Positions 9,010 to 27,330 of a DNA stretch of 64,000 nucleotides are shown one piece after another. Under the pieces are notes generated by a model. The model saw only the letters and a program-made list of their open reading frames with translations. It did no database searches and had not been told where the DNA came from. The position numbers were made by a program, and so were the translations under genes. The stretch is taken from assembly GCA_963793985.1 (NCBI GenBank), contig CAWCCG010000008.1, positions 25,707 to 89,706 of the forward strand, written 5' to 3'. Position 1 is the first letter of the stretch, and each line of letters begins with the position of its first letter. This stretch comes from an uncultured Alphaproteobacteria bacterium (GTDB taxonomy: Bacteria; Pseudomonadota; Alphaproteobacteria; Rhizobiales; Xanthobacteraceae).

Positions 9010-9061
9010 GGCGCAGCCTTACCCCCTGCGCCGACAGCATCCGGCGCAGCATCGGCACGAT

Positions 9062-10405
9062 TCACTTCGCCTTATAGCTCACGCGGTAGATGACGCCGTT
9101 GCCGTCGTCACTGAACAGCAGCGCGCCGTCCTTGGCGAAGGCGACGTCGACCGGCCGGCCCCAGACGTTCTCCTGGTTCGTCGCGAAGCCGGTGACGAAA
9201 TCCTGGTATTCGCCGGTCGGCTTGCCGTCCTTGAACGGAAGGCGGACGATCTTGTATCCGGTGTGGAGCTTGCGATTCCATGAGCCGTGCAGGGCGACAA
9301 AGGCATCGCCTTTCATCGCCGCCGGAAACTGATCGCCGTCGTTGAAGGCGAGGCCGAGCGGCGCAGAATGCGGCTGGATCAGCACGTCCGGCACGGTGAC
9401 CTTGCCCTTGAGATCCGGCCGCGGACCGCCGGCCGGCCGCGTATCTTCATGGTCGCCGATGTAATACCAGGGCCAACCGTAGAAGTGGCCCTCCTGCACC
9501 GAGGTCACGTAATCCGGCGGCAGGTTGTCGCCGAGGAGATCGCGCTCGTTGGTCGCGCAGTAGACGGTTCCGGTGCCTGGCTGCACGGCAAGGCCGGAGC
9601 AATTGCGGATGCCGGTCGCGAAGACGCGCTTGTTCTTGCCATCGGGATCGTAGGCGAGCACATCGGCCCTCCATTCATCCCGGCCCCATGTCGAGCCCAG
9701 TGCGTGGCTCTTCTCGAAGGAGACGAGATCGGGCTTCGCGCCCATGTCCTCGGCGATGTTGCCCGCCGAGCCCACCGCCACGTACATCGTCCTGCCGTCG
9801 GGCGAGAAAGCGATGTCGCGCGTCCAGTGGCTGCCGCCGGTCGGCAGATCGGAGACGACGGTTTGCGCGGGACCGGACGCCTTGAGGTCGCCGCTCTGGT
9901 AGGGATAGCGGACGACATCTTTCGTTCCGGCGATGTAGACCCATTTCGGGTCGGGGCCGGGCGGATAGAACGCGATGCCGTAGGGGTTGCGCAGGCCCGA
10001 CGCGAAAGTCTCGACGACGTCGGGCTTGTCGGCGCCGGGTTTCGCGCGCAGCACCATCACCCGGCCGTCGTTGCTGCGCGCGACGAAGATATCGCCGTTC
10101 GGAGCGACGCGGATCACGCGCGCGCCGCCCATGCCGGTCGCGAACGGCGCGACCGTAAAGCCAGGCATGGTCGCGAGCGACGCGCCGGCGGGCTTGGCGA
10201 TGACCCGTGAAACGTTCGCCGTCGGCGGCGTCTCGAGCGGCGCCGCGAGATCGTTGACGGTGATCTTGCGGATGACGCCCGGCGCATCGGTCTGCCAGTC
10301 GCCGTACGCCGCTTTGCCGGTGCGCACGTCCTCGGCGTGCGCAAGGGTCGACGTCGCAAGAAACACGGCAACTGACGAAGCGGTCCGGATCGCAGCGCGC
10401 GTCAT
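9062..10405 (-). CDS. PQQ-dependent sugar dehydrogenase (soluble glucose/sorbosone dehydrogenase family)
   Basis: 447 aa, intact, with a signal peptide. Beta-propeller-type repeats: RNPYGIAFYP, HWTRDIAFSPDG, GIRNCSGLAVQPGTG, FYGWPWYYIG, HSAPLGLAF, GRPVDVAFAKDGALLFSDD. Confidence 0.85.
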   Translation of the reverse strand: MTRAAIRTASSVAVFLATSTLAHAEDVRTGKAAYGDWQTDAPGVIRKITVNDLAAPLETPPTANVSRVIAKPAGASLATMPGFTVAPFATGMGGARVIRVAPNGDIFVARSNDGRVMVLRAKPGADKPDVVETFASGLRNPYGIAFYPPGPDPKWVYIAGTKDVVRYPYQSGDLKASGPAQTVVSDLPTGGSHWTRDIAFSPDGRTMYVAVGSAGNIAEDMGAKPDLVSFEKSHALGSTWGRDEWRADVLAYDPDGKNKRVFATGIRNCSGLAVQPGTGTVYCATNERDLLGDNLPPDYVTSVQEGHFYGWPWYYIGDHEDTRPAGGPRPDLKGKVTVPDVLIQPHSAPLGLAFNDGDQFPAAMKGDAFVALHGSWNRKLHTGYKIVRLPFKDGKPTGEYQDFVTGFATNQENVWGRPVDVAFAKDGALLFSDDGNGVIYRVSYKAK

Positions 10406-10602
10406 GGTTCCTCCAGGATGGCCAGCGTGTGGGAGGCATGATCGGTGACGCCGATGACAGGGTCAACGCCGCGGCCGATCACGCTCTGCTGATCGCAGGC
10501 GGTCGCACGCTGTCGAGGAGATCCGCGAAAGCCGTCCAGATGCCGAGATAGATTAGCGAGCTTCGCGGTCGCGCCGAGGTTCCATCAGGCTATAGTGCCG
10601 CC

Positions 10603-11496
10603 TTAAAAGTCCGGCTTGCCGGCGGTCGGCATGGCGGGCGCCTTCTCGCCGCCGAAATGTCCGCCGCTGGTCTCGGCGCACACCATTTCCGGCCAGTCTC
10701 CGAGCGGACGCCGATAGCTGATCGAGGCCGACCACGGCTGCGTCAGGACGCCTTCATCCTCGACGGTGAATTCGAGCTGCAATCCCTTGCCTTTGTAGTT
10801 GGGATTGCGAGTCAGGCCGGGGTCCCGGCCGTACCGGGAGAGCCCCTTCTGGCCGCGTTCCTCCGCTTCCTTCGCGGCTTCGTAGTCGAGGAGGCGATAG
10901 CGCTCGACGATGTGCAGCGCCGGACTGTGCGGCGTACCGTACATATCCATCATGGCGAACGGCCCGATTTTCACGCCGACGGTGTCGATCACCAGCGTGT
11001 CGCCTTCGTAGTGGCCGACCGAATCTCCATACCAGGATGGGGTGACCTGCGCCGGATGCGGCTCGTTCAGGCGCACGTGCCGAACTTCGTGATCGTTGGA
11101 GTAGAGGATCGTGACCTGGTGCGGCTCCTGCAGCATCTGCATACCGATGTTGAAGAGAACGAACGGCACGCCACCGGGCCAGCACTGGTTGCTCGGGGTC
11201 GGGTAGTACGTTCCGGTCCGCGAAATCTCGCCGTGGTGCTTTACGATGTCCGCCGCGTGCGGCTTCAAGATCGGACTGGTGTAATCGCCGACCAGTTCGA
11301 AAATGTCGGGAATGCCGTCGCGCCGGGATCGGTTGGTTATCGGCCCCGCGCCCGAGGATGGCGGCTCGAAATCCGGCCACGTCAAGTGCGCCCATATCCC
11401 GGTAAAATCGGGGATCGCCGGCTTGGCGTCATCGGCCCGGATCGGCGCGGCCACCGTGATCACGAGCAAAATCGGAACCCACCGAGGAGAATTCAT
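10603..11496 (-). CDS. Secreted protein, uncharacterised two-Cys family (paralog P1)
   Basis: The ATG at 11496 follows GGAGG. Signal peptide MNSPRWVPILLVITVAAPIRA. Family motifs: PDFTGIW, NQCWPGGVP, WYGDSVGHYEGDTLVIDT, LHIVERY, VEDEGVLTQPW, VCAE. Intact. Confidence 0.7.
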   Translation of the reverse strand: MNSPRWVPILLVITVAAPIRADDAKPAIPDFTGIWAHLTWPDFEPPSSGAGPITNRSRRDGIPDIFELVGDYTSPILKPHAADIVKHHGEISRTGTYYPTPSNQCWPGGVPFVLFNIGMQMLQEPHQVTILYSNDHEVRHVRLNEPHPAQVTPSWYGDSVGHYEGDTLVIDTVGVKIGPFAMMDMYGTPHSPALHIVERYRLLDYEAAKEAEERGQKGLSRYGRDPGLTRNPNYKGKGLQLEFTVEDEGVLTQPWSASISYRRPLGDWPEMVCAETSGGHFGGEKAPAMPTAGKPDF

Positions 11497-11677
11497 CGTC
11501 GCCTCCATGCGGTTGTCATCGAGTATGGCAGTAGTCGGGTGAACCCTCGGGCTCGGTCAAATCGGATGCTGTCGCTGCAATTGATCGTAATTTCCGTACG
11601 CTCGAACGCGGGCGACTGAAAGGGCGCACTGCTCGGAATGCGCCGCCGGTCGGAGCCCGCAGTCACCGGCGCCGCAT

Positions 11678-12655
11678 TCAATCCGCGCGGGCGCCGGAGG
11701 CTCGCACGACCTTGGCCCATTTCTCGGTTTCCTCGCCGATGAATTTGCGGAACTCGCCGGGAGAGCTCGGCAGCACCGTGAGACCGAGTTCGGCGAACCG
11801 CGCAACGAGCTTGCGGTCGGCAAGGCCGGCGTTGATCTCCTTGTTCAGCCTGTCGATGATCTCCGCCGGCGTGGTCCGCGGCGCGCCCATCCCGTACCAG
11901 GAGCTCGCTTCGTAGCCGGGCAAGTACTCGCTCATCGCCGGCACGTCGGGCACCACGTCGAGGCGCGCGGCCGTGCTGACCGCGAGCGCCCTTATTTTGC
12001 CGGCCCTGATCTGGTCGATCGCCGCGGCAAGACCGCCGAAATAGACCTGAACCTGTCCGCCGAGAAGGTCGGCGAGCGCGGGAGCGTCTCCGCGATAGGG
12101 AATGTGCACCATCTTGATGCCGGCCATGTACTGGAACAATTCCCCGGCCATATGGGGCGTTGCTCCGACCCCGCTCGACGCCATGTTCACCTTGCCCGGA
12201 TTGGCTTTGACGTAGGCGATGAACTCGGGAACCGTCTTGACCGGCAATGACGCATTCACCTCCATCACGAGAGGCGAGCGCACGATGCCGGCGACCGGCG
12301 CGATATCGCGGACGAAATCGAACGCGAGCTTCTCGTAGAGCGTCACGTTGATCGTGTTCGTCGCGCCGACCACGAGCAGCGTGTAACCGTCCGGGGGCGC
12401 CCGCACCACGAGCTCGGTGCCGAGATTGGTTCCGGCGCCGGTGCGATTCTCGACGATGAACTGCTGGCCGGTGCGCTCAGACAGCCATTGGCAGATCAGC
12501 CGACCGGCAATGTCGGTCGAGCCTCCCGCGGCAAACGGCACGATCACCCGCACCGGCTTCACCGGATAGTCGAGAGCTCGCGCGAACCGCGCACTCGCGG
12601 GTAGTGCCGCAGCGCCGGCGGCAAGGTGAAGGAATTTGCGGCGTGAAAGCGCCAT
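11678..12655 (-). CDS. Bug/TctC-family tripartite tricarboxylate transporter substrate-binding protein
   Basis: Tat-like MALSRRKFLHLAAGAAALPA. Also YPVKPVRVIVPFAAGGSTDIAGR, ENRTGAGTNLG and GKVNMASSGVGATPHMAGE. Intact. No TctA/TctB genes are adjacent. Confidence 0.9.
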   Translation of the reverse strand: MALSRRKFLHLAAGAAALPASARFARALDYPVKPVRVIVPFAAGGSTDIAGRLICQWLSERTGQQFIVENRTGAGTNLGTELVVRAPPDGYTLLVVGATNTINVTLYEKLAFDFVRDIAPVAGIVRSPLVMEVNASLPVKTVPEFIAYVKANPGKVNMASSGVGATPHMAGELFQYMAGIKMVHIPYRGDAPALADLLGGQVQVYFGGLAAAIDQIRAGKIRALAVSTAARLDVVPDVPAMSEYLPGYEASSWYGMGAPRTTPAEIIDRLNKEINAGLADRKLVARFAELGLTVLPSSPGEFRKFIGEETEKWAKVVRASGARAD

Positions 12656-13031
12656 GACCTGCTCCCGATACGAAGACGTTTCGGAGCCAACAGCGCGGCT
12701 AACGCCTGCTCCACCGTCAACGAAGTTGGAGACTGTTTGCCGGCCGATGGCATTCTTGCTGCCGGTTTGGCCACGGGACCACGGCACGTCCCTGTGAGGC
12801 AGCTTTCTTCAAGACTTACATCATCGATGCCGCCCCTCGAAAGAGGGAGGCCGCCGTCGCTGTTTAGTTTCTTGGAACCAATTGGGCCAAAGGAAACCAG
12901 TTTCTGCCAAACGACGAGAATGAAGGATCGACACGCACAGACGCCGCCTGCCCCTTTCCAGCGCATACAGAACCGGTGTACGCTATCCATATGCTACCCG
13001 CAGAGCGATGAAAAAACATAGGGAGCATGGG

Positions 13032-13856
13032 ATGCGATATCGGAGGAAACGCTCGAGGTTTGTGAGTGTTTCGGCGGCGTTGATGCTCCCTTTTCTGTGG
13101 GGCGCAATGCCGACTGCGAGCGATGCCCAGGCGCCGTCGCTGCCGCGCGGTCCTGACGGCCATCCGAACCTGAACGGCATTTGGCAAACTCTCAACACGG
13201 CAAACTGGGACATCCAGGAACACGCCGCGCGAGCGGGATCGGTCGTCGCGCTCGGCGCTATCGGCGCCGTTCCGCCCGGGCTCGGAATCGTGGAGGGCAA
13301 TGAGCTGCCCTATCTACCGGCAGCCGCAGCAAAAAAGAAGGAAAACTTCGAAAACCGTCTGACCGCCGATCCGGAGGTCAAGTGCTACATGCCCGGCGTG
13401 CCGCGCGCCACGTATATGCCCTATCCGTTTCAAATCGTTCAGACTCCCAAATTCGTTCTGATGGCCTACGAATATGCGGGCGCCAACCGCACGATCTTCA
13501 TGGATAAGGCGCCCCCGGCCGCGGCCGACAGCTGGATGGGGCACTCGGTCGGCCGTTGGGAGGGGGATACGCTCGTCGTCGACGTGACCGCGCAGAACGA
13601 TGAGACCTGGTTCGACCGGGCCGGGAATTTCCACAGCGACGCGCTGCACGTGGTCGAACGCTATACGCCGCTGAGTGCCGACGCACTCACCTACGAAGCG
13701 ACCATAGAAGACCCGAAGGTGTTTTCGCGGCCCTGGAAGATCACGATGCCGCTCTACCGGCGGCTGGAAAAGAACGCGCAGCTCCTGGAATTCAAGTGCG
13801 TCGAATTCGTGGAAGAGCTCATGTACGGGCATCTTCGCAAACAAACCGGCAAGTGA
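13032..13856 (+). CDS. Secreted protein, uncharacterised two-Cys family (paralog P2)
   Basis: The ORF opens at 13008; the ATG at 13032 follows AGGGAG. Motifs: PNLNGIW, KCYMPGVP, WMGHSVGRWEGDTLVVDV, LHVVERY, IEDPKVFSRPW, FKCVEF. Intact. Same subtype as P6. Confidence 0.7.
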   Translation: MRYRRKRSRFVSVSAALMLPFLWGAMPTASDAQAPSLPRGPDGHPNLNGIWQTLNTANWDIQEHAARAGSVVALGAIGAVPPGLGIVEGNELPYLPAAAAKKKENFENRLTADPEVKCYMPGVPRATYMPYPFQIVQTPKFVLMAYEYAGANRTIFMDKAPPAAADSWMGHSVGRWEGDTLVVDVTAQNDETWFDRAGNFHSDALHVVERYTPLSADALTYEATIEDPKVFSRPWKITMPLYRRLEKNAQLLEFKCVEFVEELMYGHLRKQTGK

Positions 13857-13869
13857 ATTGGAGGTTCAT

Positions 13870-14919
13870 ATGAGCCATCGATTTCTCACTTCGGCGAGTA
13901 TTCCGCCCGCTGATCGCGGCCGCGTTGCTGGCGCCGCTCCCCGCCGCAGCCCAGCAGGCCGCGCCGCAGGCGCAGAGCGCAGCCAAGCCGTGGACGGCGC
14001 CGCGAACGGCGGACGGCAAGCCGGACCTGCAAGGGGTGTGGGATTATCGCACCATCACCCCCTTGGAGCGGCCGGTCGCGCTCGGAACCAAGGCGTTCTT
14101 CACCGACGAGGAAGCAGCGAAATACGAGCAACAGGAAAACAGCCGCCAGAATCGCGACACGATCGATCCCAAGGTCGGCGGCCTGAACTATCCGGCGGGT
14201 GGCGTCGTTCCCTACAATGAGTTCTGGTACGACCGCGGCGACAAGGTCGTCGGAACCAAGCGGACATCGCTGATCGTCGATCCGCCCAACGGTCGGCTTC
14301 CTCCCTTTACGCCCGAAGGTGAGGCGAAGGCCAAGCGGCGCGCCGAGATCGGACGCCAGGAGCAATTCGGACATCCCATCGCCGATTCCTGGGAAGACCG
14401 CCCGCTCGGAGAACGCTGCATTCTCGGGTCGAATGCCGGACCGCCGATGACGCCGGGCGCCGTACAACAACAATGTCCAGCTGTTCCAGACGCCCGGTCA
14501 CGTGGCACTCGTCAACGAGATGATCCACGAGGCCCGCGTCATTCCGATGGACGGCCGACCCCACCTGCACTATTCCGCAGTGGAAGGGAGACTCGCGCGG
14601 CCACTGGGAGGGTGACACGCTCGTCGTCGACACCACGAATTTCAAGCGCGAAACGAGCCTTCCCGGCTCCAGCGCCGCAATGCATCTCACCGAGCGCTTC
14701 ACCCGGACCGGCCCGGACACGTTGCTCTACGAGTTCACCGTAGACGATCCGTCGACATGGACGAAACCGTGGACAGCGGCGCTCCCGATGTCGAGGATCG
14801 ACGTCCCGGTCTACGAGTACGCCTGTCACGAAGGAAATTACGCCATGTCAGGCATCCTTGCTGGCGCACGCGCCGATGAAAAAGCCGCAGCAGACGCGGC
14901 GAAAAAAGCTTCGAAGTAG
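13870..14919 (+). pseudogene. Secreted protein, uncharacterised two-Cys family (paralog P3), frameshifted
   Basis: The ATG at 13870 follows GGAGG. The signal peptide (RRVFRPLIAAALLAPLPAAA) is already in another frame. Motifs: PDLQGVW, GERCILG, then YNNNVQLFQTPGHVALVNEMIHEARVIPMDGRPHL in a third frame, then EGDTLVVDTTNF, MHLTERF, VDDPSTWTKPW, YACHEG. At least 3 frame changes. Confidence 0.65.
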
Positions 14920-14954
14920 CTGCCGTTCCTTTTTTGATGAAGGAGTGTGGCACG

Positions 14955-15596
14955 ATGAGACGGCAAATCACGGTAGCCCTGTGCGCGGCGGCCCTTGGAT
15001 TTGTCGTCACGTCGCCTCTCGTGGTTGCCCAACAACGGGCCGGGAACTCCCCCGGCGGGGTGGCGACTGCGCCTGCCGTCGGCGCCGGCAGTGCCGCAAC
15101 GGACGGTCAGGTCTTTCTCACCATCAGGGATCTGATGGAATCGATCATCGATCCGTCCGCCGACACGCTTTGGGGCGCGGTCGGAACGGTGGTCGACAAT
15201 GACGGCATCCACGAGATGTTTCCGAAGACTGATGAAGAATGGCAGGAGCCGCGCCGTGCCGCCGTGCGCATCATCGAAGGCGGCAACCTGCTGATCATGC
15301 CCGGCCGCGACGCGGCGCCCCCCGGAGCCAAATCCGAAGCGCCGGGGGCCGAGCTCGAGCCGCCCGAGATCACCGTGCTCATCAAGGAGAAACGAACGAG
15401 CTTCGATGCCTTCGCGAGGGCGCTCCAAGGCGTCGGCGTGGAAGCGCTCGGAGCGATCGACGCCAAGGACACTTCTCTGCTGTTGGAAATCGGCGCCCGA
15501 ATGGAGAGTGTCTGCGAGGGGTGTCATCAGACATTCTGGTATCCGCAGGAAAAGGACGCGCGCGTAGGCAATAATCGACCTTCTCAGAATCGCTAG
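14955..15596 (+). CDS. Periplasmic c-type haem protein with a single C-terminal CXXCH (class II / cytochrome c-prime-like)
   Basis: The ATG at 14955 lies 9 nt after AGGAG. Signal peptide MRRQITVALCAAALGFVVTSPLVVA. The only CXXCH (CEGCH) is about 25 residues from the C-terminus, as in four-helix-bundle class II cytochromes. Intact. Confidence 0.6.
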   Translation: MRRQITVALCAAALGFVVTSPLVVAQQRAGNSPGGVATAPAVGAGSAATDGQVFLTIRDLMESIIDPSADTLWGAVGTVVDNDGIHEMFPKTDEEWQEPRRAAVRIIEGGNLLIMPGRDAAPPGAKSEAPGAELEPPEITVLIKEKRTSFDAFARALQGVGVEALGAIDAKDTSLLLEIGARMESVCEGCHQTFWYPQEKDARVGNNRPSQNR

Positions 15597-15614
15597 CTCA
15601 GCGAGAGGCACGAG

Positions 15615-16848
15615 ATGCGCATTCGACTTCAGAAGTCGATCGAGGTATCGGCGGCGATCGTATCGACGCTCTCGTTTTTTGCCGCCGTCGCCGTACCCGT
15701 TTGCACGGCGTCGGCCCAGGCTCCCGCGACATCCGGGGCTGGCGCGACATCCGGAGGAAACTTGGCGACCACGCTGAAGACGCCGTGGGGCGAACCCGAT
15801 CTGCAGGGCATCTGGACCGATGAAACCGACACGCCGTTCCAGCGCTCGCCGAAGTTCGCGAACCAGGAATTCTTCACCGAGGCGCAGCGGGCGGAATTCG
15901 ACCGCATAAGGTCCGACATGCGCGGACGCGACAACCGCGGCGCGCGCGGCAGCGAGCGCGACGTCTCCGGCGCCTACAATAATGTGTGGGGCGCGTTGAA
16001 GCGCACCAGCCCGCGCACGTCGATGATCGTCGATCCGCCGGACGGCCGCATCCCTGCGATGACGCCGGAGGCGCAAAAGATCACCAACGCCGATCGCGAC
16101 TTCCGCCTCGCGCTGATGCAGGCGACGCAGACCTGCAAGCTCAAGCTGCCCGGATGTGCCGGAGGCAAGCTACATCCCGACGCCGACGTCGCGCCGCGCG
16201 GAGTTTGCGCCGCGCTACAACACCGCGCGCATGAACCGCCACGACAGCCCGGAGGACGGCGCGCTGGCGGACCGCTGCCTCACGCTGGGGCTGCCCGAGT
16301 TCGGCGCCGGCAACGGCGGCGGCAGCTTCCGCCGCATCGTGCAGACGCCGGGCGGCATCGCCATCGCCTACGACGTCGGCCAGGGCCAGGGATGGCAGCG
16401 CAGCATCGTGATGAACGGCAGCCCGCACCTGCCGGCCGACATCCGCCAGTGGTTCGGCGATTCGCGCGGCCACTGGGAAGGCAACACGCTCGTCATCGAC
16501 GTCACGAATTTCAGCCCGAAGACCGACTATCGCGGCTCGCGCGAGAACCTGCATCTCGTCGAGCGCTGGACGCGTACCGCGCCGGATACGCTCGAATACG
16601 TCGCAACGATCGAAGATCCGACCGTGTGGACGAAGCCGTGGACCGTCAAGCAGGAGTTCAAGAAGCAGAACGAGCAGGAAAACCGCATCTATTACGAGCC
16701 GCGCTGCGTCGAAGGAAACTTCGGTTTTCCCGCGATGATGAAAACGGCGCGCCAGGAGGATCGCGACTTCGCCGAAGGCCGCGGGCCCGATCCGCTGACC
16801 AGGGACAACGCGTCCGGATTCCAGGAGCCGGATCCGCTGCAACAATGA
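15615..16848 (+). pseudogene. Secreted protein, uncharacterised two-Cys family (paralog P4), one frame change
   Basis: Signal peptide plus LKTPWGEPDLQGIW. The frame is lost just after TCKLKLPGCAGGK (about 16150). It resumes as YIPTPTSRRAEFAPRYNTARMNRHD, ADRCLTLGLP, WFGDSRGHWEGNTLVIDV, LHLVERW, IEDPTVWTKPW, PRCVEG. Confidence 0.7.
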
Positions 16849-16875
16849 GATGGCCGCAAGGCAGAGGACCAGTAG

Positions 16876-18053
16876 ATGCGTGAGCATTTCGCAGGTTTGA
16901 CGGTCGCCATTCCCGTGATCGCCGTTCGCCGTGATCGCGATCGCGTTCGGCGCTTCCGCCGCGGCGCCTCGGCGCAGGCCCTGAAGACGCCCTGGGGCGA
17001 GCCCGACCTGCAGGGCATCTGGACCGACGAAAGCGACACGCCGCTCCAGCGCTCGCCGAAATTCGCCAACCAGGAATTCTTCACCGACGCGCAGCGCGCC
17101 GATCTCGACAAGGAACGATCCGCCCTGCTGCGCCGCGACAAGCGCGTCGAGCGCGGCACCGAGCTCGACGTCGCCGGCGCCTACAACGCCCTGTTCATGA
17201 GCCAGAAGAGGACGGGCGCGCGCACGTCGCTGATCGTCGATCCGCCCAACGGCCGGATTCCGGCGATGACGCCGGACGCCGCGAAGGCCGCCGCAGCCGA
17301 TCGGGAATTTCGTCTCGCCCTGCTGCAGTCGACCGGGACCTGCAAGACGCAAGTCGATCGCCTGCAGCGGCGGCACAGTACGATCCGACCCCCTCGCCGC
17401 GTCTTGCCGAGCTTCCGCCGCGCTACAACACCGCGCGGATGAATCGCCACGACGGCCCGGAAGACGGCTCGTTGCCGGACCGCTGCCTGACCCTCGGCCT
17501 GCCCGAGTTCGGCGCTGCGACCGGCAGCTTCCGCCGCATCGTGCAGACGCCCGGCGGCATCACGATGTTCTACGACGTCGGCCAGGGCCAGGGCTGGCAG
17601 CGCAACATCGTCATGAACGGCAGCCCGCATCTGCCGGCCTCCGTTCGCCAATGGTTCGGCGACTCGCGCGGCCACTGGGAAGGCGACACGCTCGTCGTCG
17701 ACGTGACGAACTTCAGCCCGAAGACCGATTATCAGGGCGCGCGCGAGAACCTGCATCTCGTCGAGCGCTGGACACGGACCGGGCCGGACACGCTCGAATA
17801 CGTCGTGACCATCGAAGACCCGACGGTGTGGACGCGGCCCTGGACGGTCAAGCAGGAGTTCACCCGGCAGAGCGACCAGGAGAACCGGCTCTACACCGAG
17901 CCGCGTTGCATCGAAGGAAACTACGGTCTGCCGGGGCTGATACGCGGCGCACGCGCGGAGGAGCTCGCCTTCGCGGAAGGCCGCGGGCCTCACCCGGCGA
18001 CGAAGGACAACGCCACCGATTTCGTCGGTGTCGAAGACGATCCGCTGCAATGA
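16876..18053 (+). pseudogene. Secreted protein, uncharacterised two-Cys family (paralog P5, tandem duplicate of P4), frameshifted
   Basis: About nine in ten nucleotides match P4 over a stretch I aligned by eye. The hydrophobic signal core FAVIAIAFGASAAA is out of frame. Further breaks occur around TCKT / KSIACSGGT / QYDPTPSPRLAELPPRYNTAR (about 17345-17375). Downstream motifs are intact: WFGDSRGHWEGDTLVVDV, LHLVERW, PRCIEG. Confidence 0.7.
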
Positions 18054-18076
18054 CAGCGAATGGAGGGAGAAAATAC

Positions 18077-19039
18077 ATGCGCGACCGCTACCTGGGTTTG
18101 TTGATGACGGTTGCCCTTGCCGTGGCGGCCGTCGACGCCGTCACCTCCCTCGCCATGGCGCAGGCGCCGCAGATCGTGCGGCCGCCGGCCCGCATCGAGG
18201 GCAAGCCGAACTTTTCCGGCATCTGGCAGGCCAACAACGAGGCCAACTGGGACCTGCAGGCGCACGCGGCGCGGCCCGCCGCCGTGACCCAGCAGGGCGT
18301 CTACCCCTATGAGTACGCCCGCGTCCCGGCCGCGCCGGTGCTCGCGCTCGGCGCCGCCGGCGCGGTGCCGGGATCGCTCGGCGTCGTGCAGGGCGACGGC
18401 GAGATTCCGTACAAGCCGGAAGCCCTGGCGATCAAGAAGGAGAACCAGGAGCACTGGATCGACCGCGATCCCGAGCTCAAGTGCTATCTGCCGGGCATTC
18501 CGCGCGCGATGTATCTGCCCTATCCGTTCCAGATCACGCAGAGCACCAACAAAATCCATATGGCGTTCGAGTTCACCAACACCGCGCGCACGATCCATAT
18601 GGACAAGGTCGAGGGGCCGCCGGACGACACCTGGATGGGCCATTCGGTCGGGCGCTGGGATGGCGACACGCTGGTCGTCGACGTGACCAATTTCAACGAC
18701 CGCACCTGGTTCGACCGCTCCGGCGATTTTCACAGCGACGCGCTGCACCTCGTCGAACGCTTCACCATGATGTCGCCCGACATCATCTGGTACGAGGTGT
18801 CGATCGAAGACCCCAACGTGTTCACGCGGCCGTGGAAGATCGCGATGCCGCTCTATCGTCGCGTCGAACCGAACATCCAGCTCCTCGAGTTCCGCTGCAA
18901 CGAATTCGTCGAGGAGTTCATGTACGGAAATCTGCGCAAGACACCGCTGGTCAAGCACTGGGAGGGCGATACGATGACGATCGACATCACCCGCAAGGTG
19001 CCGCCCGGCGACCTCTTCTATCAGTGGTACGGCAGGTGA
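18077..19039 (+). CDS. Secreted protein, uncharacterised two-Cys family (paralog P6)
   Basis: The ATG at 18077 follows GGAGGGA. Signal peptide MRDRYLGLLMTVALAVAAVDAVTSLAMA. Motifs: PNFSGIW, KCYLPGIP, WMGHSVGRWDGDTLVVDV, LHLVERF, IEDPNVFTRPW, FRCNEF. Intact. Confidence 0.7.
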   Translation: MRDRYLGLLMTVALAVAAVDAVTSLAMAQAPQIVRPPARIEGKPNFSGIWQANNEANWDLQAHAARPAAVTQQGVYPYEYARVPAAPVLALGAAGAVPGSLGVVQGDGEIPYKPEALAIKKENQEHWIDRDPELKCYLPGIPRAMYLPYPFQITQSTNKIHMAFEFTNTARTIHMDKVEGPPDDTWMGHSVGRWDGDTLVVDVTNFNDRTWFDRSGDFHSDALHLVERFTMMSPDIIWYEVSIEDPNVFTRPWKIAMPLYRRVEPNIQLLEFRCNEFVEEFMYGNLRKTPLVKHWEGDTMTIDITRKVPPGDLFYQWYGR

Positions 19040-19166
19040 GGTCCGACAGTGAAGTCGGACAGGTGACATCGAAAGTGACATGGGACAGGCGCCGGATATC
19101 CCGATCCGGGAGTTGAGCCGCCGCGGCGACTTGGCGCTTGTCTCAAGTTCTATCCGCGGCAGGGAG

Positions 19167-19612
19167 ATGAACATGCGAACGAAGCTTGCCTTGATGATCG
19201 GTATCACGGGTCTCGCGGTGGCCGGCTGGTCGGCGGCGTCGTGGGCGCACCACGCGTTTGCCGCGGAGTTCGACGCCGACAAGCCGGTGACCTTCAAGGG
19301 CGTCATCACCAAGATGGAGTGGGTCAACCCGCACACCTGGCTGCATGTCGACGTGAAGAACCCCGACGGCACGACGGTGAACTGGGCGATCGAAGCCGGC
19401 ACGCCGAACGTGCTGTTCCGCCGCGGCTTCACCAAGGATTCGCTGCTGCCCGGAACCGAGATCGTGGTCGATGGATACCAGTCGAAAGACGGCAGCCGTC
19501 GCGCCAACGGCCGCGACCTGACCTTCCCGGACGGCCGCAAGCTGTTCCTCGGCTCGTCCGGCACCGGCGCTCCCTACGAGCTGACGCCGGGGCCGCGGGC
19601 AAGACCAACTGA
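19167..19612 (+). CDS. DUF6152-family periplasmic protein (3' end uncertain)
   Basis: Signal peptide MNMRTKLALMIGITGLAVAGWSAASWA, then HHAFAAEFDADKPVTFKGVITKMEWVNPHTWLHVDV, which matches my recollection of DUF6152. The frame has no stop until 20165 and runs over the next gene, so a frame error near the C-terminus is likely. The end given is the nearest alternative-frame stop. Confidence 0.65.
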
Positions 19613-19665
19613 GCTTGCTCGGCATACACAGCGCCGCACGCGGATCGGAATTCGACGGAATTGGA

Positions 19666-20223
19666 ATGTCGCCCCTGGCGTTCTTCGAACAGCTGGCGGA
19701 TACGCCGTGGAGCATGGCGCTTCACGAGTTGGAGATCGCCTATTCCATCCTCGAGTCGATCCACGTGTGGTCGCTCGTTCTGTTCTTCGGCCTGGTCATC
19801 GTCTTCGACCTGCGCCTGCTCGGCTGGGCGTTCCAGAAGGTGCCGGTATCGGAATTCTCCCGGCGCCTTCTGCCCTGGACCATCCTCGGCTTCGTGCTCA
19901 TGGTCATCAGCGGCGTGCTGCTGGTCTACGCGATCCCGGTGCGGTCCTATCAGAACCTGTTCTTCAGGTTCAAATTGATCCTGCTGCTGCTCGCCGGCAT
20001 CAACGTGCTGATCTTTCACTCGCGGGTCTATCCCGGCATCGAGAAGTGGGACAACGACGCGAAGCCGCCGCGGGCCGCGAGGCTCGCCGGCGCGTTTTCT
20101 CTCGTGCTGTGGATCGGCATCGTCGTGTCCGGACGCATGATCGCCTACAACTGGTTCGACTGTGACCGGCAGCCGCAACCGGACATCATCAATCTCCTGA
20201 CCAGTTGCACACCGACCGAGTAG
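19666..20223 (+). CDS. Polytopic membrane protein, DUF6644-like
   Basis: MSPLAFFEQLADTPW, then 4-5 hydrophobic helices. Conserved ESIHVW...VFDLRLLGW in helix 1 and SLVLWIGIVVSGRMIAY at the end. Intact. Confidence 0.6.
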   Translation: MSPLAFFEQLADTPWSMALHELEIAYSILESIHVWSLVLFFGLVIVFDLRLLGWAFQKVPVSEFSRRLLPWTILGFVLMVISGVLLVYAIPVRSYQNLFFRFKLILLLLAGINVLIFHSRVYPGIEKWDNDAKPPRAARLAGAFSLVLWIGIVVSGRMIAYNWFDCDRQPQPDIINLLTSCTPTE

Positions 20224-20226
20224 GCG

Positions 20227-20704
20227 ATGGACCTCCTGCCGTTCTTCCAGTGGTGCTACCAGACGGACATCGGCGTCACGATACGAAATTCGATGTGGCT
20301 GTTCCCCGCCATCGAGGCCTTTCACCTGCTCGGCTTCGGACTGACCGCCGGCGCGGTGCTGGTCGTCAATTTGCGTCTCCTCGGCGTCGGACTGGGTCGG
20401 CAGCCGGTCGCGCAGATCGCGGCGAGCGCCGAGCCGTGGCTGATGCTCGGCGTCGCCATGATGATCGTGTCCGGCGTTCCGCTGTTCCTCGCCGAAGTCG
20501 ATCAAGTGCCTCTACAGCTTCGCCTTCTGGGTGAAGATGATCTGTTTCGTCCTGGTGCTCATCTTCACGTTCACGTTCTATCGCTACGTGACGCGGACGA
20601 AGTCGGCCTCCGACCGGACGTCGGTCGCCCGATCGGCCGCGGTGATATCGCTGGTCCTGTGGGCCGGCGTCGCCTGGGGCGGACGCTGGATCGGATTTTC
20701 CTGA
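20227..20704 (+). pseudogene. Polytopic membrane protein, DUF6644-like paralog, one frame change
   Basis: MDLLPFFQWCYQT..., IEAFHLLGFGLTAGAVLVVNLRLLGV. The frame is lost near 20500 and resumes as KCLYSFAFWVKMICFVLVLIFTF...SLVLWAGVAWGGRWIGFS, with the stop at 20702-20704. Confidence 0.55.
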
Positions 20705-20787
20705 AGACGCGGCTGATCTGCGTCGTTCGGGGCGAGCGGCCCGCAGCAGCCGACCGAGCGCCGCGAAAACTCGAGGGAGGTCAAGTC

Positions 20788-21910
20788 ATGCGTGATCTGC
20801 GACGTTCGATCGTTCTTTCCGCCGCCGCCATCGCCGCCTTCACCGCCATCGCTTACGGCGGTGCAGCCCGCGCTGTCGCTCGATCCGGACTTTGCCGCCA
20901 TCGAAGCGCAGGAGAACGCCGCCAACAGCAAGGCCGGCCCGCGCGTCGTGCCGGGCCGCGCGATCCCGGTGCCGGGCACCGTGAGCCCGCAACTGCAGGC
21001 GACGATCGCCGCGCCCTATCGCATCCCGGCATGGGACGCCGATCCGAAGAGCGCGGCCGAGTGGAAAGACCTCATCACCAGGCTCGCCGACGCCGGCAGC
21101 GCAGCGCGCCGCGAAGCGCGCGAGAAGCTCGGCGTCACCATGGAGCCGACGGTGATCGGCGGAGTGAAGGCTTTCATTCTGACGCCGAAGGAAATCCGGC
21201 CGGAGAACCGCAACCGCCTGCTGATCCACGTGCACGGCGGCGGCTACGTCTACGGTCCCGGCGAGGCGGGCACCGGCGAGGCCACGCTGATGGCCGCCTT
21301 TGGCGGCTACAAGGTGATCTCCATCGACTATCGCATGCCGCCCGACTTCCCCTACCCGGCGGCGATGGACGACGCCATGGCGGTGTGGCGCGAAGCGGTC
21401 AAGATGCAGAACCCGCGCAACATGGCGATCTTCGGCACCTCGACCGGCGGCGGCATGACGCTCGCCATGATCCTGCGCGCCAAGCAGGAAGGCCTGCCGC
21501 TTCCGGCCGCGATCGCGCCCGGCACGCCGTGGTCCGATCTCACCGAGACCGGCGACACCTACAAGACCAACGAGTGGCTCGACAACGTCCTCGTCAGCTA
21601 CAACGGCTATCTCGTCCACGCCGCGAAGCTTTACGCCGCCGGACACGACCTGAAGGACCCCCAGCTCTCGCCGATCTACGGCGACTTCACCGGCTTTCCG
21701 CCGGCGATCCTGACCAGCGGCACGCGCGACCTGTTCCTGAGCCTCACCGTGCTCACGCACCGCAAGCTTCGCCGCGCCGGCGTCGAAGCCGAGCTTCAGG
21801 TCTATGAGGGCATGTCGCACGCCCAGTACAATTTCGATGCCTTTGCGCCGGAGACCAAGGAGGTCTTCACCGAGATCGCGCGCTTCTTCGACCAGCACCT
21901 CGGCAAGTGA
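20788..21910 (+). pseudogene. Secreted alpha/beta hydrolase (esterase/lipase, HGGG-type), one frame change in the signal region
   Basis: The ATG at 20788 follows GAGGGAGG and gives MRDLRRSIVLSAAAIAAFTAIAYGG. A shift near 20865 leads into ORF 20792-21910. That ORF carries the HVHGGGYVYG oxyanion motif, the GTSTGGG nucleophile elbow, and later DLFL / H residues. Confidence 0.8.
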
Positions 21911-21981
21911 CGCCGACGTAGCGAGCCGTCGGAGACCTGAATCCGCCAGAAGACCTGCACGGCACTTCCCATTCTCAGATG

Positions 21982-22071
21982 GTCATGGCCGGGCTTGTCC
22001 CGGCCACCCCGATCATCAGGGCACGGCCGTGCCAACATTATCGGGGTCGCCGGGACAAGCCCGGCGATGAC
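21982..22071. repeat. Nested-hairpin intergenic repeat (Bradyrhizobiaceae REP-like element)
   Basis: Arms GTCATGGCCGGGCTTGTCCCGGCCAC and GTCGCCGGGACAAGCCCGGCGATGAC form an inverted repeat of about 26 bp with 2 mismatches. Each arm is itself palindromic (GCCGGG...CCCGGC). A central GGCACGGCCGTGCC palindrome lies between them. Confidence 0.6.
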
Positions 22072-22110
22072 GGCGTGAGTTGACCGCAGCCGGCGATCAG
22101 TTCCGCCTTG

Positions 22111-22999
22111 TCACCGCGAAAACTGACGCAGCGTGAAAACATCCGCGATCGGCATCGCGTCGCTCTCGCGCTCGAGCCGGCACCAGTGGTCCACCCGGCC
22201 ATGCATCGCGACGCCGCCCGCGCAGCACGACGGCGACACGGTCGCCGGGCTCGATGTTGCCGTGATAGACGATGTCGCGCCGGCGCGTCGTCGTGCGCGG
22301 GTCGAGCGGCCGGAAGAACGCCCATTCGGCACGGTCGACGAAGGCCTGGAAGCTCGAGAAATAGAGAAAATCCGCGCCGTTGAAATCCTGTGCCGGGCAG
22401 GGATCGATCACGAGCCGATCGAGCACCGGTGCGTCGGCGCGCACGAAGCCGAGGTGCTCCTTCCAACTGTCGCGGCGCAGCGCCGCCACCGTCTCCTCGA
22501 TAATCCGCGAATTCTCGCGACGACACGACCGGCGGCAGACCCGGCACCTCGACGCGGGCGATCGAGCGGTTGCGTCCCTGCCTCCATCCGCTTGACGAAC
22601 AGCGAGGTCATGACGACCTCGCCGAGCGGACGACCGCGCACGCGCGACCGCGTGCACGCTCATGAACCGGGTGCGCGAAATCCGCGTCAGCCGGGAGCGG
22701 AATTCGAGCGCATCGTGTTCGCGCGCGGCATCGAAGCGCGCCTCGCGCACGGTGACGGCGATGAACGCCGCGTAGACCGGATCGCCGTCGTCGTCGCGGA
22801 AATCCGGCACCGCGCGCCCCGCGGCTTGCGCGAGCAGGAACCAATGACGGTGCCCGCATTCGCGCAGCAGCCAGGTCTCGGAGAGGCCGCCGAGGCAGAG
22901 ATGGGGCATGCCGAGCACGATCTCGTCCGACAGCGCCGGCGCCACCGGGCCGCCGCCGAGGATGCGATCGATCTCGAGGTAACCGAGCGGGATGTTCAT
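22111..22999 (-). pseudogene. Putative double hot-dog-fold protein (Pnap_2097 / LnmK-like), frameshifted
   Basis: MNIPLGYLEIDRILGGGPVAPALSDEIVLGMPHLCLGGLSETWLLRECGHRHWFLLAQAAG matches my memory of the Pnap_2097-type family. The middle is out of frame. The C-terminal part is DFNGADFLYFSSFQAFVDRAEWAFF...IVYHGNIEPGDRVAVVLRG. The tail in ORF 22111-22332 is AMHGRVDHWCRLERESD. Confidence 0.5.
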
Positions 23000-23001
23000 G
23001 G

Positions 23002-24304
23002 CTACGATCCGATCGCGGCTTCGTTGAGCGCGGCTTCGACGCTGGGCCCGGTTCATGCCGACCCGCGCCTCGATGTGCTCGGCGAGATATTCGGCGTCGC
23101 GCGCCACGCCGGAAAAGCGTCCCGAGCCCCAGGTGTAGAGCCAGGGCAGCCCGAGAAAGTAGACGCCCGGCAGGGGGGTCACGCCGCGGACATGTGCGGG
23201 TTGCCCGCGGCCGTTGAAGACCGGCAGGTCGAGCCAGCTGTAGTCGGTGCGAAAGCCGATGCACCAGACGATCGAGGTGATGCCGGCCGCGCGATAGTCG
23301 AGCTCCTCGCGTTCGTGGGGCGGCGCCCATACCGGCGTGTAGCGGGCCTCCGTCGGCGCCTCGATGCCGCGCTTGGCGATGAAGCCGTCGATGCTGGTCT
23401 TGATGCTCTCCGAGACCTGGTCGGCCTGATCGAGACATTGCGCGAGGTCGTCGTCGCAGATCAGCCGGTCGCCGGCGACGTCGAGCAGGCGGCCGTAGAG
23501 CTCCATGCCCTCGCGCGCGCGCTGCCGCAGGTCGATGTCGCGGCCGCCGTCGCGGCCGGTGACGTAGTGATTGGTCTTGTCGCGCACGCCTTCGCGCAGC
23601 GGATGCTCGTGCACCGGCAGGTCGTAGTAGCCCATGAGGTGCAGCCACTCGACCACGTCCTTGCCGCGATAGCGCCGCGACACCCGCGGCGCGTCGCCGA
23701 CGCAGAGATGCACCTTGCGGCCGGCGAGATGCAGGTCCTCGGCGATCTGGCAGCCCGATTGCCCGCTGCCCACCACCAGCACGGCGCCGGGCGGAAGCTG
23801 GTCCGGATTGCGGTATTCGGAGGAATTGATCTGCACGAGGTCGGGATCGAGCCGTTCGGCGCAGCGCGGGATCACCGGAATCTGGTAGCCGCCCGCCGCG
23901 ATCACCACCTGGTCGGCGAGATAGAGGCCTTCGGTGGTCTCGAGCGTGAAGCCGTGCTGCGGATTGCTGCGCAGGCCCTTCACCGCGACGCCTTCGCGCA
24001 GCGGCGGCTCGAACGACGCGACGAAGCCGTCGATGTAGTCGACGATCTCGTCGCGCAGCATGAAGCCGTAGGGGTCGGCGCCCTGGTAGGGAAAGCCCGG
24101 CAGCTGGCACTGCCAGTTCGGCGTCACCAGGCAGAACGTGTCCCAGCGCTCGGCGCGCCAGGCGTGGCCGGCGCGCTTCTTCTCGAACACGACGTGATCG
24201 ATGCCGCTGCGCTTGAGATACCAGCTGATCGAGAGGCCGGCCTGGCCGCCGCCGATCACCGCGACCGAAAGGTGCGCGAGCGGAGCGGGCTGGGAAGCGT
24301 TCAT
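23002..24304 (-). CDS. MSMEG_0569-family flavin-dependent oxidoreductase (Nit1C flavoprotein); no in-frame stop as sequenced
   Basis: The ATG at 24304 follows GGAGGC; an alternative ATG at 24322 forms an ATGA overlap with the upstream stop. Dinucleotide folds VAVIGGGQAGLSISWYL and VLVVGSGQSGCQIAEDL. The frame reads straight into the next gene. A one-base shift near 23050 would end it at the TAG at 23002-23004, two nt before that gene's ATG. Confidence 0.8.
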
Positions 24305-24318
24305 GGGAGAGCCTCCAT

Positions 24319-24607
24319 TCATTCGTCGAAAGCGTCGACCGCGACCCGCGCGGCGGGATCGCCGATAAACGCGCTCGCCATCGTCTCGATGCGGGCGAGC
24401 TGGGCGAGCGCGCGGCTGCACGGCATGCCGTACTTCGCCCTCACCCGATCGCTCGCGATGCCGAGCGCGGTGCGGCTGCGCGCCAGGAAATCGGTGAGCG
24501 CATAGTCGGTGCCGACCGCGAAGTAGTCCTTGATCACCAGCGACGGCGAATAGCAGCTCTCGGAGCGTGCCGTCGGGCCAGCGGATGTGAAAGCGCATTT
24601 CAGGCAT
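24319..24607 (-). pseudogene. MSMEG_0570-family nitrogen-starvation response protein (Nit1C Hp2), one frame change
   Basis: MPEMRFHIRWPDGTL, a shift near 24540, then VIKDYFAVGTDYALTDFLARSRTALGIASDRVRAKYGMPCSRALAQLARIE. The start overlaps the upstream stop by 8 nt. Confidence 0.65.
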
Positions 24608-26756: not shown

Positions 26757-26766
26757 CGCGCCCTCC

Positions 26767-27330
26767 TTACGCCGCCCGCCGGGGCAGCGACAGGAAGCCG
26801 GTCTCCGGATCGGCGATCGGCGGGTAGTAGGCGAGATCGGCCTGCATGAAGTGATGCGGCCGGCCGCGCAGCTCGATCTCCTCGATGGTGCGCCAGTGCA
26901 GGCGCCGGAACAGCAGCGCGTTCTGGCTCTGCACATGGGCATAGAAGCGGCGGCAGCCGCGGGCATGGGCCGAGCACACGGCGAGGCGGATCAGCGCGGC
27001 GCCGAGCGCGCCGATGCGGCGATAGTCGGCGGCGACGGCGAGGCGCGAACCCCACCACACGCCAGGCTCGGCCTCGTGAATGCGCACGGTGCCGACCACG
27101 TCGTGCGGCGCGACGCCGAGCGAGGAGATCGCGACCAGCGGGATCGCGATGGCGTCGATGTCGTCGCGATCGTCGCCCGCGAAGATGCCCTGCTCCTCGC
27201 AGAACACCTGCCGCCGCAGCGCCGCGGCCTCGCGGCGCTCCCAGGCTTCGGTCGCGAACTTCACCCGGTATTCGGCCGGCAGGAACACGGGGAACGGATC
27301 GAAGATCATGCGACGCCCCTGCTGCGGCAT
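26767..27330 (-). CDS. MSMEG_0567/Sll0786-family GNAT N-acetyltransferase
   Basis: Intact, 187 aa. ALRRQVFCEEQGIF, GTVRIHE, RRIGALGAALIRLAVCSAHARGC (acetyl-CoA binding Q/R-x-x-G-x-G/A region). Confidence 0.8.
   Translation of the reverse strand: MPQQGRRMIFDPFPVFLPAEYRVKFATEAWERREAAALRRQVFCEEQGIFAGDDRDDIDAIAIPLVAISSLGVAPHDVVGTVRIHEAEPGVWWGSRLAVAADYRRIGALGAALIRLAVCSAHARGCRRFYAHVQSQNALLFRRLHWRTIEEIELRGRPHHFMQADLAYYPPIADPETGFLSLPRRAA

Follow-up and report, generated by a model that had tools for sequence, protein, structure and literature searches.

What might six related secreted proteins, each carrying a conserved pair of cysteines and none assigned to a characterised family, be doing side by side in a single bacterial locus? 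The question is raised by a stretch of 64,000 nucleotides (hereafter the window) from an uncultured alphaproteobacterium of the Xanthobacteraceae (contig CAWCCG010000008.1, positions 25,707 to 89,706), in which six such genes, P1 to P6, cluster with genes for a haem protein, a DUF6152 protein, two DUF6644-like membrane proteins and an esterase. We argue that the cluster represents two copies of a widespread and undescribed periplasmic module, namely P2-P3 and P4-P5-P6-DUF6152, and suggest more tentatively that the six paralogs, modelled as barrels, bind anionic ligands in the periplasm and work together with a metal or redox partner.

The barrel family and its conserved core

An earlier note on this DNA had listed the six genes along with a set of shared motifs, and both parts of that description hold. 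All six genes were located where it placed them (P3, P4 and P5 after frame reconstruction), and the six motifs were recovered exactly as listed from the reconstructed paralogs, including the early cysteine as C-x3-G-x-P in five of the six, with P3 as the exception, and the late C-x-E in every one. Pairwise BLASTP E-values range from 4.7e-8 (P1/P4) to 0 (P4/P5), so that the similarity cannot be put down to chance. P2 and P6 are 59% identical, P4 and its tandem duplicate P5 70%, and P1 shares 24-32% with the other paralogs. We distinguish four subtypes: S (P2, P6), L (P3), K (P4, P5) and P1 by itself. Of the three proposed in the note, the pairing of P2 with P6 and the separate standing of P1 survive; P3, however, does not group with P4 and P5, to which it is only ~35% identical, and represents a different subtype. 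The LHIVER and EDEG motifs of P1 are separated by a 30-residue insert, and P6 has GGAGGGAG 7 nt ahead of its ATG. The long N-terminal insert of P4 and P5 contains an extra conserved cysteine pair (TCK..PGCAGG, at 16120-16180 and 17340-17385), which is missing from the S, L and P1 types and probably forms a second disulfide. Elsewhere in the 64-kb window there are no further members of the family.

The N-termini examined carry signal peptides of the Sec type, bearing out the claim that the paralogs are secreted. Export by the Tat route was considered and rejected, as RRx## is present in just 19 of 275 N-termini and the twin-arginine motif is not conserved; with Sec signal peptides of this kind, the barrels therefore receive no cofactor in the cytoplasm. 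The two cysteines on which the note had laid weight are retained in 90-95% of 124 diverse representatives.

How large is this family, and does any part of it have a name? A profile built from the window paralogs matches the representatives of at least 19,034 clusters (50% identity) at E<=1e-3; at E<=1e-10 the number is 11,426. A word-index search with the paralogs gives at least 8,000 matches, and all 120 of the names listed read 'hypothetical protein', as do the names of the exact public sequence matches to P1, P2, P6 and the haem protein. Searching Pfam with the six window paralogs yields nothing at E<=0.01 and NCBIfam is likewise empty; even at E<=5 no Pfam model is common to more than two of 52 diverse members (alignment A2), and phmmer and profile searches of the PDB with the family return no match. 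By these sequence and profile searches the paralogs thus belong to no characterised family, as the note had stated. The barrel family is without model or name, and ranks among the larger families that lack any annotation. Our literature search returned nothing on DUF6152, DUF6644, PF19649 or PF20349, and nothing joining pyrroloquinoline quinone (PQQ) with periplasmic lipocalin-like proteins; no description of the system was found in Pfam, NCBIfam, the PDB or the literature searched, in line with the note's view of it as undescribed.

The locus survey, which took one genome per species, covers 80 loci among the matches listed, with at least 597 confirmed matches. Represented in the survey are Acidobacteriota (Bryobacterales, Vicinamibacterales, Terriglobia, Holophagales), Gemmatimonadota, Gammaproteobacteria (Halieaceae, Steroidobacter and others) and Alphaproteobacteria. 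Across 84 loci a hidden Markov model search identifies ~250 paralog open reading frames (ORFs), and in 68 of these loci, all found with the paralog profile, a DUF6152 gene is present. Read in the other direction, 72 of 86 metagenome DUF6152 ORFs have a co-oriented adjacent paralog, which lies upstream in 61; among the 14 lacking one, 11 start within ~560 bp of a contig end. The gene orders recorded are S-L-DUF6152 (42 cases), S-DUF6152 (25), L-DUF6152 (17) and K(n)-S-DUF6152 (15). What is conserved is a core of two or three genes: one or more paralogs, typically short and then long, followed by DUF6152. Read by these patterns, the window contains an S-L pair (P2-P3) and a K-K-S-DUF6152 unit (P4-P5-P6-DUF6152), with the cytochrome gene between them. 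The note had treated a lack of conserved synteny in related genomes as damaging to its case; the link with DUF6152 is in fact very strong in both directions. What does not recur is the set of ten co-oriented genes that the note had taken as one unit, whereas the linkage of paralog and DUF6152 at its centre does.

Tandem two-domain fusions of 450-560 residues make up 14 of the 150 best representatives (P0121, P0130, P0131, P0142, P0150, P0159, P0164, P0168, P0175, P0200, P0221, P0236, P0254 and P0269), which supports the idea that two barrels pair physically. Several of these fusions have a P1-like second domain. Up to five diverged barrel/DUF6152 cassettes occur on both strands within one 20-kb locus (L022, L055, L073), an arrangement that points to expansion through cassette duplication.

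Fold, partner proteins and invariant residues

P2 was modelled with AlphaFold2, with 52 diverse sequences as input (mean predicted local distance difference test score, pLDDT, 89.9; predicted template-modelling score 0.83), and the model consists of a short GIW strand, a helical insert of ~80 residues, eight strands (133-243) and a C-terminal helix. The best 50 Foldseek matches of this model in the PDB are all FABP, CRBP, CRABP or tardigrade SAHS proteins (probability ~1, E from 2e-3, target template-modelling (TM) score 0.43-0.58). P2 is modelled, then, as an FABP-like calycin barrel behind a helical insert, a likeness at the level of the fold. No confident match to a family of known biochemical function emerged from either sequence or structure, the structural matches being confined to that level.

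A handful of barrel residues scarcely vary among the diverse representatives. R153 is found in 124 of 124, E209 in 123 of 123 and R210 in 120 of 123; S172 follows with 115 of 124 (93%), Y221 with 113 of 122 and D227 with 109 of 120 (91%), and position 206 is occupied by H, R or K in 114 of 123 (His in 82, Arg or Lys in 32). Of the two cysteines, C118 (110 of 116) lies in the stretch just ahead of the first barrel strand and C256 (101 of 112) where the last barrel strand leads to the C-terminal helix, and the two would form a disulfide. Residues were assigned to faces by setting the DSSP strands of the P2 model in ordinary hairpin register. By this register R153 lies on the same face as I155 and M157, S172 on that of W176, L181 and V183, and H206, V208, R210, T212, Y221, I225 and D227 all fall on one face. 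Because these faces mix hydrophobic with invariant polar residues and the opposite faces are mostly polar, we take the faces with R153, S172, R210 and Y221 as the lining of the cavity, so that R153, R210, Y221, S172, [H/R/K]206 and D227 would point into it. In FABP and CRABP, an Arg-Arg-Tyr triad clamps the carboxylate of the ligand. By analogy, the cationic cluster of the barrels would, with its Tyr and Ser, hold a small ligand by an anionic group, for which a carboxylate is the likeliest candidate.

The partner that almost always follows the barrels, DUF6152, is equally distinctive at its N-terminus. Cleavage of the window protein after SWA leaves a mature N-terminus HHAFAAEFD, and in 76 sequences from the loci as well as 51 from databases the mature start HH[AS]F-x-AEFD stands directly behind a conserved Ala at -1. 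H1, H2, F4, N27, P28 and H29 are invariant in alignments of 38 and 52 sequences, and W46, E49 and R58 are invariant or nearly so; the DUF6152 alignments contain no conserved Met or Cys cluster. The DUF6152 model (pLDDT 79.7) adopts an oligonucleotide/oligosaccharide-binding (OB) fold, for which Foldseek gives SSB and the N-terminal domain of LysRS as best matches (E~2e-3, TM ~0.5), with CusF not among the best 50. A CopC-like beta-sandwich was considered for DUF6152 and discarded in view of this OB-fold model. Signal-peptide cleavage that exposes an invariant His is characteristic of histidine-brace copper proteins. We infer that DUF6152 may bind a metal through its N-terminal amine and His, plus His29, the likeliest candidate being Cu(II) or another borderline metal.

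Two further components, the DUF6644 pair and the cytochrome, form an optional sub-module: DUF6644 occurs in 19 of the 84 loci, the cytochrome in 17, and both stand beside the core in 12. The two DUF6644 genes are always tandem. PF20349 is matched by 29 of 29 DUF6644 homologues (best 4e-47), whose secondary, weak Pfam matches are to DUF2214 (13), DUF4405 (4), CopD (3, at E<=1) and UPF0093 (1); DUF6644 protein 1 of the window reaches 19 bits against CopD (PF05425; E 0.002), under the threshold of 32.1. Invariant in the family are H34, in the first of about four hydrophobic helices, K104, W150 and R158. The cytochrome taken alone has a best PDB match of E=0.17 and no Pfam match, but a profile of its family finds 25 PDB cytochromes c' at E<=1e-3 (best 5.2e-5), and the homologue from locus L076 matches PF01322 (6.5e-5). 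M61, in the first helix region, C187, C190 and H191 are invariant among 15 homologues, and the invariant Met would fit a Met/His low-spin c-556 type. In many homologues (from loci L020, L043, L061, L083, L032, L062, L027 and L076; alignment A6) the signal peptide ends in a Cys, as would be expected of lipoproteins. The signal peptide of the window cytochrome is an ordinary one, and the protein contains a 20-residue Pro/Ala/Glu-rich insert (AAPPGAKSEAPGAELEPPE) that is found otherwise only in L001, L004 and L027. Together, the DUF6644 pair and the cytochrome could link the module to the membrane, for electrons or for metal.

The accessory genes named in the note (haem protein, DUF6152, two DUF6644 proteins and an HGGG esterase) are all present, but its supposition that they travel together fails for the esterase. 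Relatives of the esterase occur in only 2 of the 84 loci; it lies outside the conserved module, and its place in the cluster is particular to the lineage of the window. Against the GTSAG HSL subfamily of NCBIfam it scores 336 bits, under the cut-off of 380.

Candidate functions, neighbouring genes and frame breaks

What else lies near the barrels? When all ORFs of the 84 loci were clustered, PQQ beta-propeller dehydrogenases proved to be the commonest further neighbour, present in 24-27 loci and directly adjacent and co-oriented in 9. Their density of ~1 per 37-58 kb of locus DNA suggests that they are enriched near barrel loci. A lanthanide-specific link was tried as a general rule and dropped, since the neighbouring PQQ alcohol dehydrogenases (PQQ-ADHs) have both WDYD and WDYT. 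CarboxypepD_reg and outer-membrane-barrel proteins occur in 14 loci. In L076, from Halieaceae, a TonB-dependent receptor is divergent from an operon of PQQ-ADH, S, L, DUF6152, DUF6644 and DUF6644, with the cytochrome on the other strand. In L061 (Longimicrobiales), a PQQ beta-propeller and a serine beta-lactamase/esterase domain are encoded by one and the same ORF (14040-17303), beside a DUF6644-DUF6644-cytochrome set; this could be a genuine fusion, unless the stop-to-stop ORF has simply joined two separate genes.

Taking these observations together with the invariant residues, the reading we favour, held with less than even confidence, is that the barrels are periplasmic binders of anionic ligands that work with a metal or redox partner. 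In its full version, the barrels would clamp a carboxylate-bearing small ligand in the cavity, the two barrels would act as a heterodimer, and DUF6152 would supply a metal site from its exposed N-terminus; the DUF6644 four-helix proteins, with one invariant His each, and the Met/His cytochrome would connect the module to the membrane, and carboxylate-bearing periplasmic substrates might be captured for a metal-dependent redox step. A role in ligand processing is suggested by the many diverged copies per genome and by the nearby PQQ dehydrogenases, TonB-type barrels, esterases and Bug receptor. The same copy number and neighbouring genes are why we favour substrate capture for a metal-dependent redox step over homeostasis of a single metal. 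Our confidence declines along this chain: it is greatest for the binding of an anionic group, lower for heterodimers, lower again for a metal at the N-terminus of DUF6152, and least for the metal-dependent redox step.

Several points weigh against this proposal. Since ~80% of the loci lack both DUF6644 and the cytochrome within 10 kb, redox wiring is no general property of the core. The association with PQQ genes is an enrichment only, in phyla that carry many such genes. Residues 1-5 of the DUF6152 model are of low confidence, so no metal site is visible there, and in the absence of any conserved Met the protein is also without the Met-rich Cu(I) motif of CusF. The likeness of the barrels to FABP does not extend beyond the fold, the placement of the invariant residues in the cavity is deduced from strand register, and the conservation of binding residues in every subtype could also mean that a single shared cofactor or metal complex is bound, and not diverse substrates.

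How, then, do the alternatives fare? Doubtful in our judgement, but to be taken seriously, is the idea that the module serves periplasmic metal trafficking, with DUF6152 as a metallochaperone comparable to CusF, CopC or YcnI, DUF6644 as a CopD-like importer, the cytochrome reducing the metal, and the barrels binding a metal or metallophore, possibly on behalf of Ca/Ln-dependent PQQ enzymes. ZinT and siderocalin are indeed calycins that bind a metal or a metallophore complex. The processed His-His terminus and NPH motif of DUF6152 on an OB fold would suit such a role, as would the weak CopD and DUF2214 matches of DUF6644 members, the many invariant carboxylates and cationic residues of the barrels, the divergent TonB-dependent receptor of L076, the outer-membrane barrels in 14 loci, and the lanthanide-type WDYD of some adjacent PQQ-ADHs. 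On the other hand, several diverged cassettes per genome, up to five per 20-kb locus (L022), would be unusual for metal homeostasis, most loci lack a membrane transporter, and DUF6152 is without a conserved Met or Cys cluster. The CopD score falls short of the Pfam threshold (19 against 32.1 bits), adjacent PQQ enzymes are a mixture of WDYD and WDYT and hence show no lanthanide-specific link, and in the one upstream block examined we noticed no metal-regulator box but rather a LysR-type look.

Rather unlikely is a second alternative, according to which the barrels are passive carriers that shuttle fatty acids, products of alcohol or ester breakdown, or the tricarboxylate cofactor PQQ, and DUF6152 is a mere docking or adaptor subunit. 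It would account for the FABP-like fold, the invariant Arg/Arg/Tyr cluster, the nearby esterases and lipases (in the window, and GDSL lipases in L001), the PQQ dehydrogenases and the TctC carboxylate receptor, and would agree with the import of PQQ, instead of its synthesis, in many Gram-negatives with PQQ enzymes (PMC12124388). It leaves unexplained, however, the N-terminal His-His and NPH of DUF6152 as well as a dedicated cytochrome c and a His-bearing membrane pair in ~20% of loci, and the multiplicity of cassettes speaks against a carrier for PQQ as a single cofactor.

Bolder, and unlikely as it stands, is the suggestion that short barrel, long barrel and DUF6152 make up an unrecognised class of periplasmic metalloenzyme, in which a His-His metal centre (copper or other) would sit on the OB subunit, the barrels would present carboxylate substrates, and electrons would come from the class II cytochrome c, the DUF6644 proteins or PQQ dehydrogenases. 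Such an enzyme would be a bacterial analogue, in logic and not in ancestry, of lytic polysaccharide monooxygenases (LPMOs) and their PQQ or cytochrome electron donors.

That the barrels are themselves enzymes, for instance hydrolases with S172 (G-x-S-x-G), His206 and Asp227 as a triad, strikes us as very unlikely. The G-[DH]-S-x-G motif is present in all six paralogs, S172 and D227 are as strongly conserved as given above, H206 and D227 would be cross-strand partners by strand register, and there are esterases in the neighbourhood. Yet a catalytic His would not tolerate the swap to Arg or Lys seen at position 206 in 32 of 123 representatives, and neither Pfam nor Foldseek detects similarity to a hydrolase family.

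The last question is whether the window genes work at all, since P3, P4 and P5 are each split across two or three frames. As a reference for the frames we used L165, a JGI contig with 84-92% DNA identity that is collinear with window positions 10602-29185. Its intact genes encode products of 297 (P1), 325 (TctC), 271 (P2), 348 (P3), 220 (cytochrome), 403 (P4), 392 (P5), 320 (P6), 145 (DUF6152), 185 and 158 (DUF6644) and 386 residues (esterase). Relative to L165, the window has insertions in P3 (13906, 14462, 14571), P4 (16169) and P5 (17350 and 17376, plus indels at 16925-16961), a 2-base insertion close to the 3' end of DUF6152 (19593), a single-base insertion in the second DUF6644 gene (20497), and indels that garble the signal-peptide region of the esterase (20745-20903). 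The insertions are isolated, of 1-2 bases and mostly outside homopolymers, and break at least seven genes; frame breaks extend beyond the cluster, to a GMC oxidoreductase gene at 7536-9283. In L001, a long-read-style assembly, the same genes are frameshifted at other positions. Because the collinear L165 has every gene intact, and because fragment ORFs (such as 188- and 204-residue pieces of P5) already stand in the public record of the 99,122-bp NCBI/ENA contig, we conclude from the comparison that the breaks are errors of the deposited assembly in genes that are functional. For P4 and P5, programmed frameshifting or a natural split of the genes was also considered and set aside, given that each break, compared with intact orthologues, comes down to a single inserted base, and that L001 is broken elsewhere. 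The view that the paralogs are decaying pseudogenes and the cluster non-functional in this organism, to which the out-of-frame state of P3, P4, P5, DUF6152, the second DUF6644 gene and the esterase might lend itself, is so improbable that we reject it: the insertions are isolated within well-conserved coding sequence and spread over the whole window, L001 is broken at different positions of the same genes, L165 and L166 (collinear) and L167 keep every gene intact, and the correct frames are free of premature stops.

Table 1. Features of the cluster and its immediate surroundings, with positions in the window.
Feature	Position	Strand	Description
sGDH/TrAA12-like six-bladed PQQ dehydrogenase	9062-10405	-	PF07995 GSDH, 1.7e-16; context only
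P1	10603-11496	-	297 aa, divergent paralog; ORF intact; BLASTP against P2 3e-17
Bug/TctC solute receptor	11678-12655	-	325 aa; PF03401, 1.5e-66, 225 bits; start from L165 comparison
Conserved block 5' of P2	12955-13000	+	TTTCCAGCGCATACAGAACCGGTGTACGCTATC; TAC-N9-GTA dyad, LysR-type T-N11-A box; window/L165/L004 alignment
P2	13032-13856	+	274 aa, short type (S); ORF intact
P3	13870-14919	+	~348 aa, long type (L); split by three single-base insertions
Class II-type cytochrome c	14955-15596	+	213 aa; CEGCH 21 residues from C-terminus
P4	15615-16848	+	~403-410 aa, long type (K); one single-base insertion
P5	16876-18053	+	~392 aa, long type (K); several indels
P6	18077-19039	+	320 aa, short type (S), C-terminal extension; ORF intact; directly 5' of DUF6152
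DUF6152	19173-19612	+	145-aa precursor; PF19649, E=3e-33, 114.3 bits against cut-off 27
DUF6644 protein 1	19666-20223	+	185 aa, ~4 transmembrane helices; PF20349, 6e-11, 43.1 bits against 27 (scored over 19615-20223)
DUF6644 protein 2	20227-20704	+	158 aa; frameshifted copy 25.7 bits in window, intact in L165
Esterase	~20788-21910	+	secreted; PF07859 Abhydrolase_3, 2e-40, HSL family; HVHGGGY and GTSTGG

On the minus strand, P1 forms part of an operon (9062-12655) with the TctC receptor and the sGDH-type PQQ dehydrogenase, beyond which lies the GMC oxidoreductase gene (plus strand). The TctC-P1 pair also occurs in L165 and L167-L169, and the L167 orthologue of the sGDH-type enzyme matches both TrAA12 and GSDH. 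The block conserved ahead of P2 may be regulatory, judging by its sequence. The note's remark that the cluster has no regulator applies to the window itself but not to L165, where a LysR gene adjoins P1 in the place occupied by the sGDH gene in the window; a LysR-type box is, moreover, conserved 5' of P2. A promoter and terminator scan of 10400-22300 gave counts not above those of shuffled sequence and is uninformative on the limits of operons. Downstream, on the minus strand (22097-29185) and collinear with L165, lies an unrelated cluster for a 294-residue protein without a Pfam match, a flavin-dependent N-hydroxylase-like enzyme, a GT4 glycosyltransferase, an AIRS-like protein, a GNAT acetyltransferase, a radical SAM enzyme and a CN hydrolase, a gene content that suggests the biosynthesis of a small molecule.

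Returning to the barrels as binders of anionic ligands with a metal or redox partner, why should the module matter? What began as six odd paralogs can now be tested as a defined unit, in which two barrels and DUF6152 are joined in some loci by a DUF6644 pair and a cytochrome c. There are named residues to mutate, and the biochemical question comes down to which anion and which metal are bound. The family is abundant in heterotrophs that dominate in soil and in the sea (Acidobacteriota, Gemmatimonadota, Halieaceae, Steroidobacter, Xanthobacteraceae). If ligand processing or metal delivery is indeed linked to PQQ enzymes, the module would fill a gap in the periplasmic substrate use of these organisms and give a function to two Pfam DUFs. 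Its interest stems mainly from the size of the family, its sharply defined architecture and its testability.

Comparison with known systems

The sole structural matches to the P2 model, FABP, CRBP, CRABP and SAHS, provide the most obvious comparison. The order of elements in P2 is compatible with theirs, with a first strand carrying G-x-W, a helical insert and then the remaining barrel strands, and the invariant Arg, Arg and Tyr of the barrels (R153, R210, Y221; 93-100%) recall the FABP clamp, with a position in the cavity that is given by strand register only. The differences are nevertheless considerable. There is no detectable sequence similarity and TM is only ~0.5; the helical insert of the barrels comprises 80-190 residues and is not a helix-turn-helix; and the barrels, unlike the cytosolic FABPs of ~130-140 residues without signal peptide, are made as Sec-exported precursors of 274-410 residues, with a conserved Cys pair, pairs or fusions of barrels and an OB-fold partner.

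Calycins are also known from the periplasm, namely YceI, which binds isoprenoid quinone and whose gene lies beside one for cytochrome b561, ZinT/YodA, which binds zinc, and Blc. The pairing of YceI with a membrane b-type cytochrome is loosely like that of the barrels with DUF6644 and the cytochrome. However, none of the paralogs matches the Pfam models of these proteins, and the DUF6152 partner and the pairing of short and long barrels are without known counterpart among them.

DUF6152 shares its nature as a small secreted OB-fold protein with CusF, whose His/Met/Met (plus Trp) motif it lacks, and a mature N-terminal His with CopC, YcnI and the histidine brace of LPMOs, from which it differs in being modelled as an OB fold and not a beta-sandwich or Ig-like fold. 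DUF6152 is sometimes followed by weakly CopD-like membrane proteins, as in the copper systems partnered by CopD, but these are absent from ~80% of loci. Compared with CusF, CopC, YcnI and PCuAC, only the present module is known to have calycin barrels as partners. The window cytochrome has the C-terminal CXXCH of the class II cytochromes c (c', c-556), yet it is ~90 residues longer, with an insert and a long N-terminal region, and several homologues have a lipoprotein-type Cys.

Work on accessory genes of XoxF and other PQQ-ADHs in Acidobacteria and Gemmatimonadetes describes small secreted hypothetical proteins (~110-130 residues) and TonB-dependent transporters that adjoin PQQ enzymes (PMC10875860; bioRxiv 10.64898/2026.07.10.737718), among them a small protein without conserved domain and with a predicted Asp/Glu lanthanide site (bioRxiv 10.64898/2026.07.10.737718). 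Neither of these papers mentions DUF6152 or the barrel family, nor does the study of PQQ import mention a partner of the barrel or DUF6152 type (PMC12124388). The phyla are the same, but DUF6152 differs from these accessory proteins in having a Pfam domain and a His-based motif. The folds of the components are thus familiar and two of the components have DUF numbers; the module as a whole we rate as a new kind of system.

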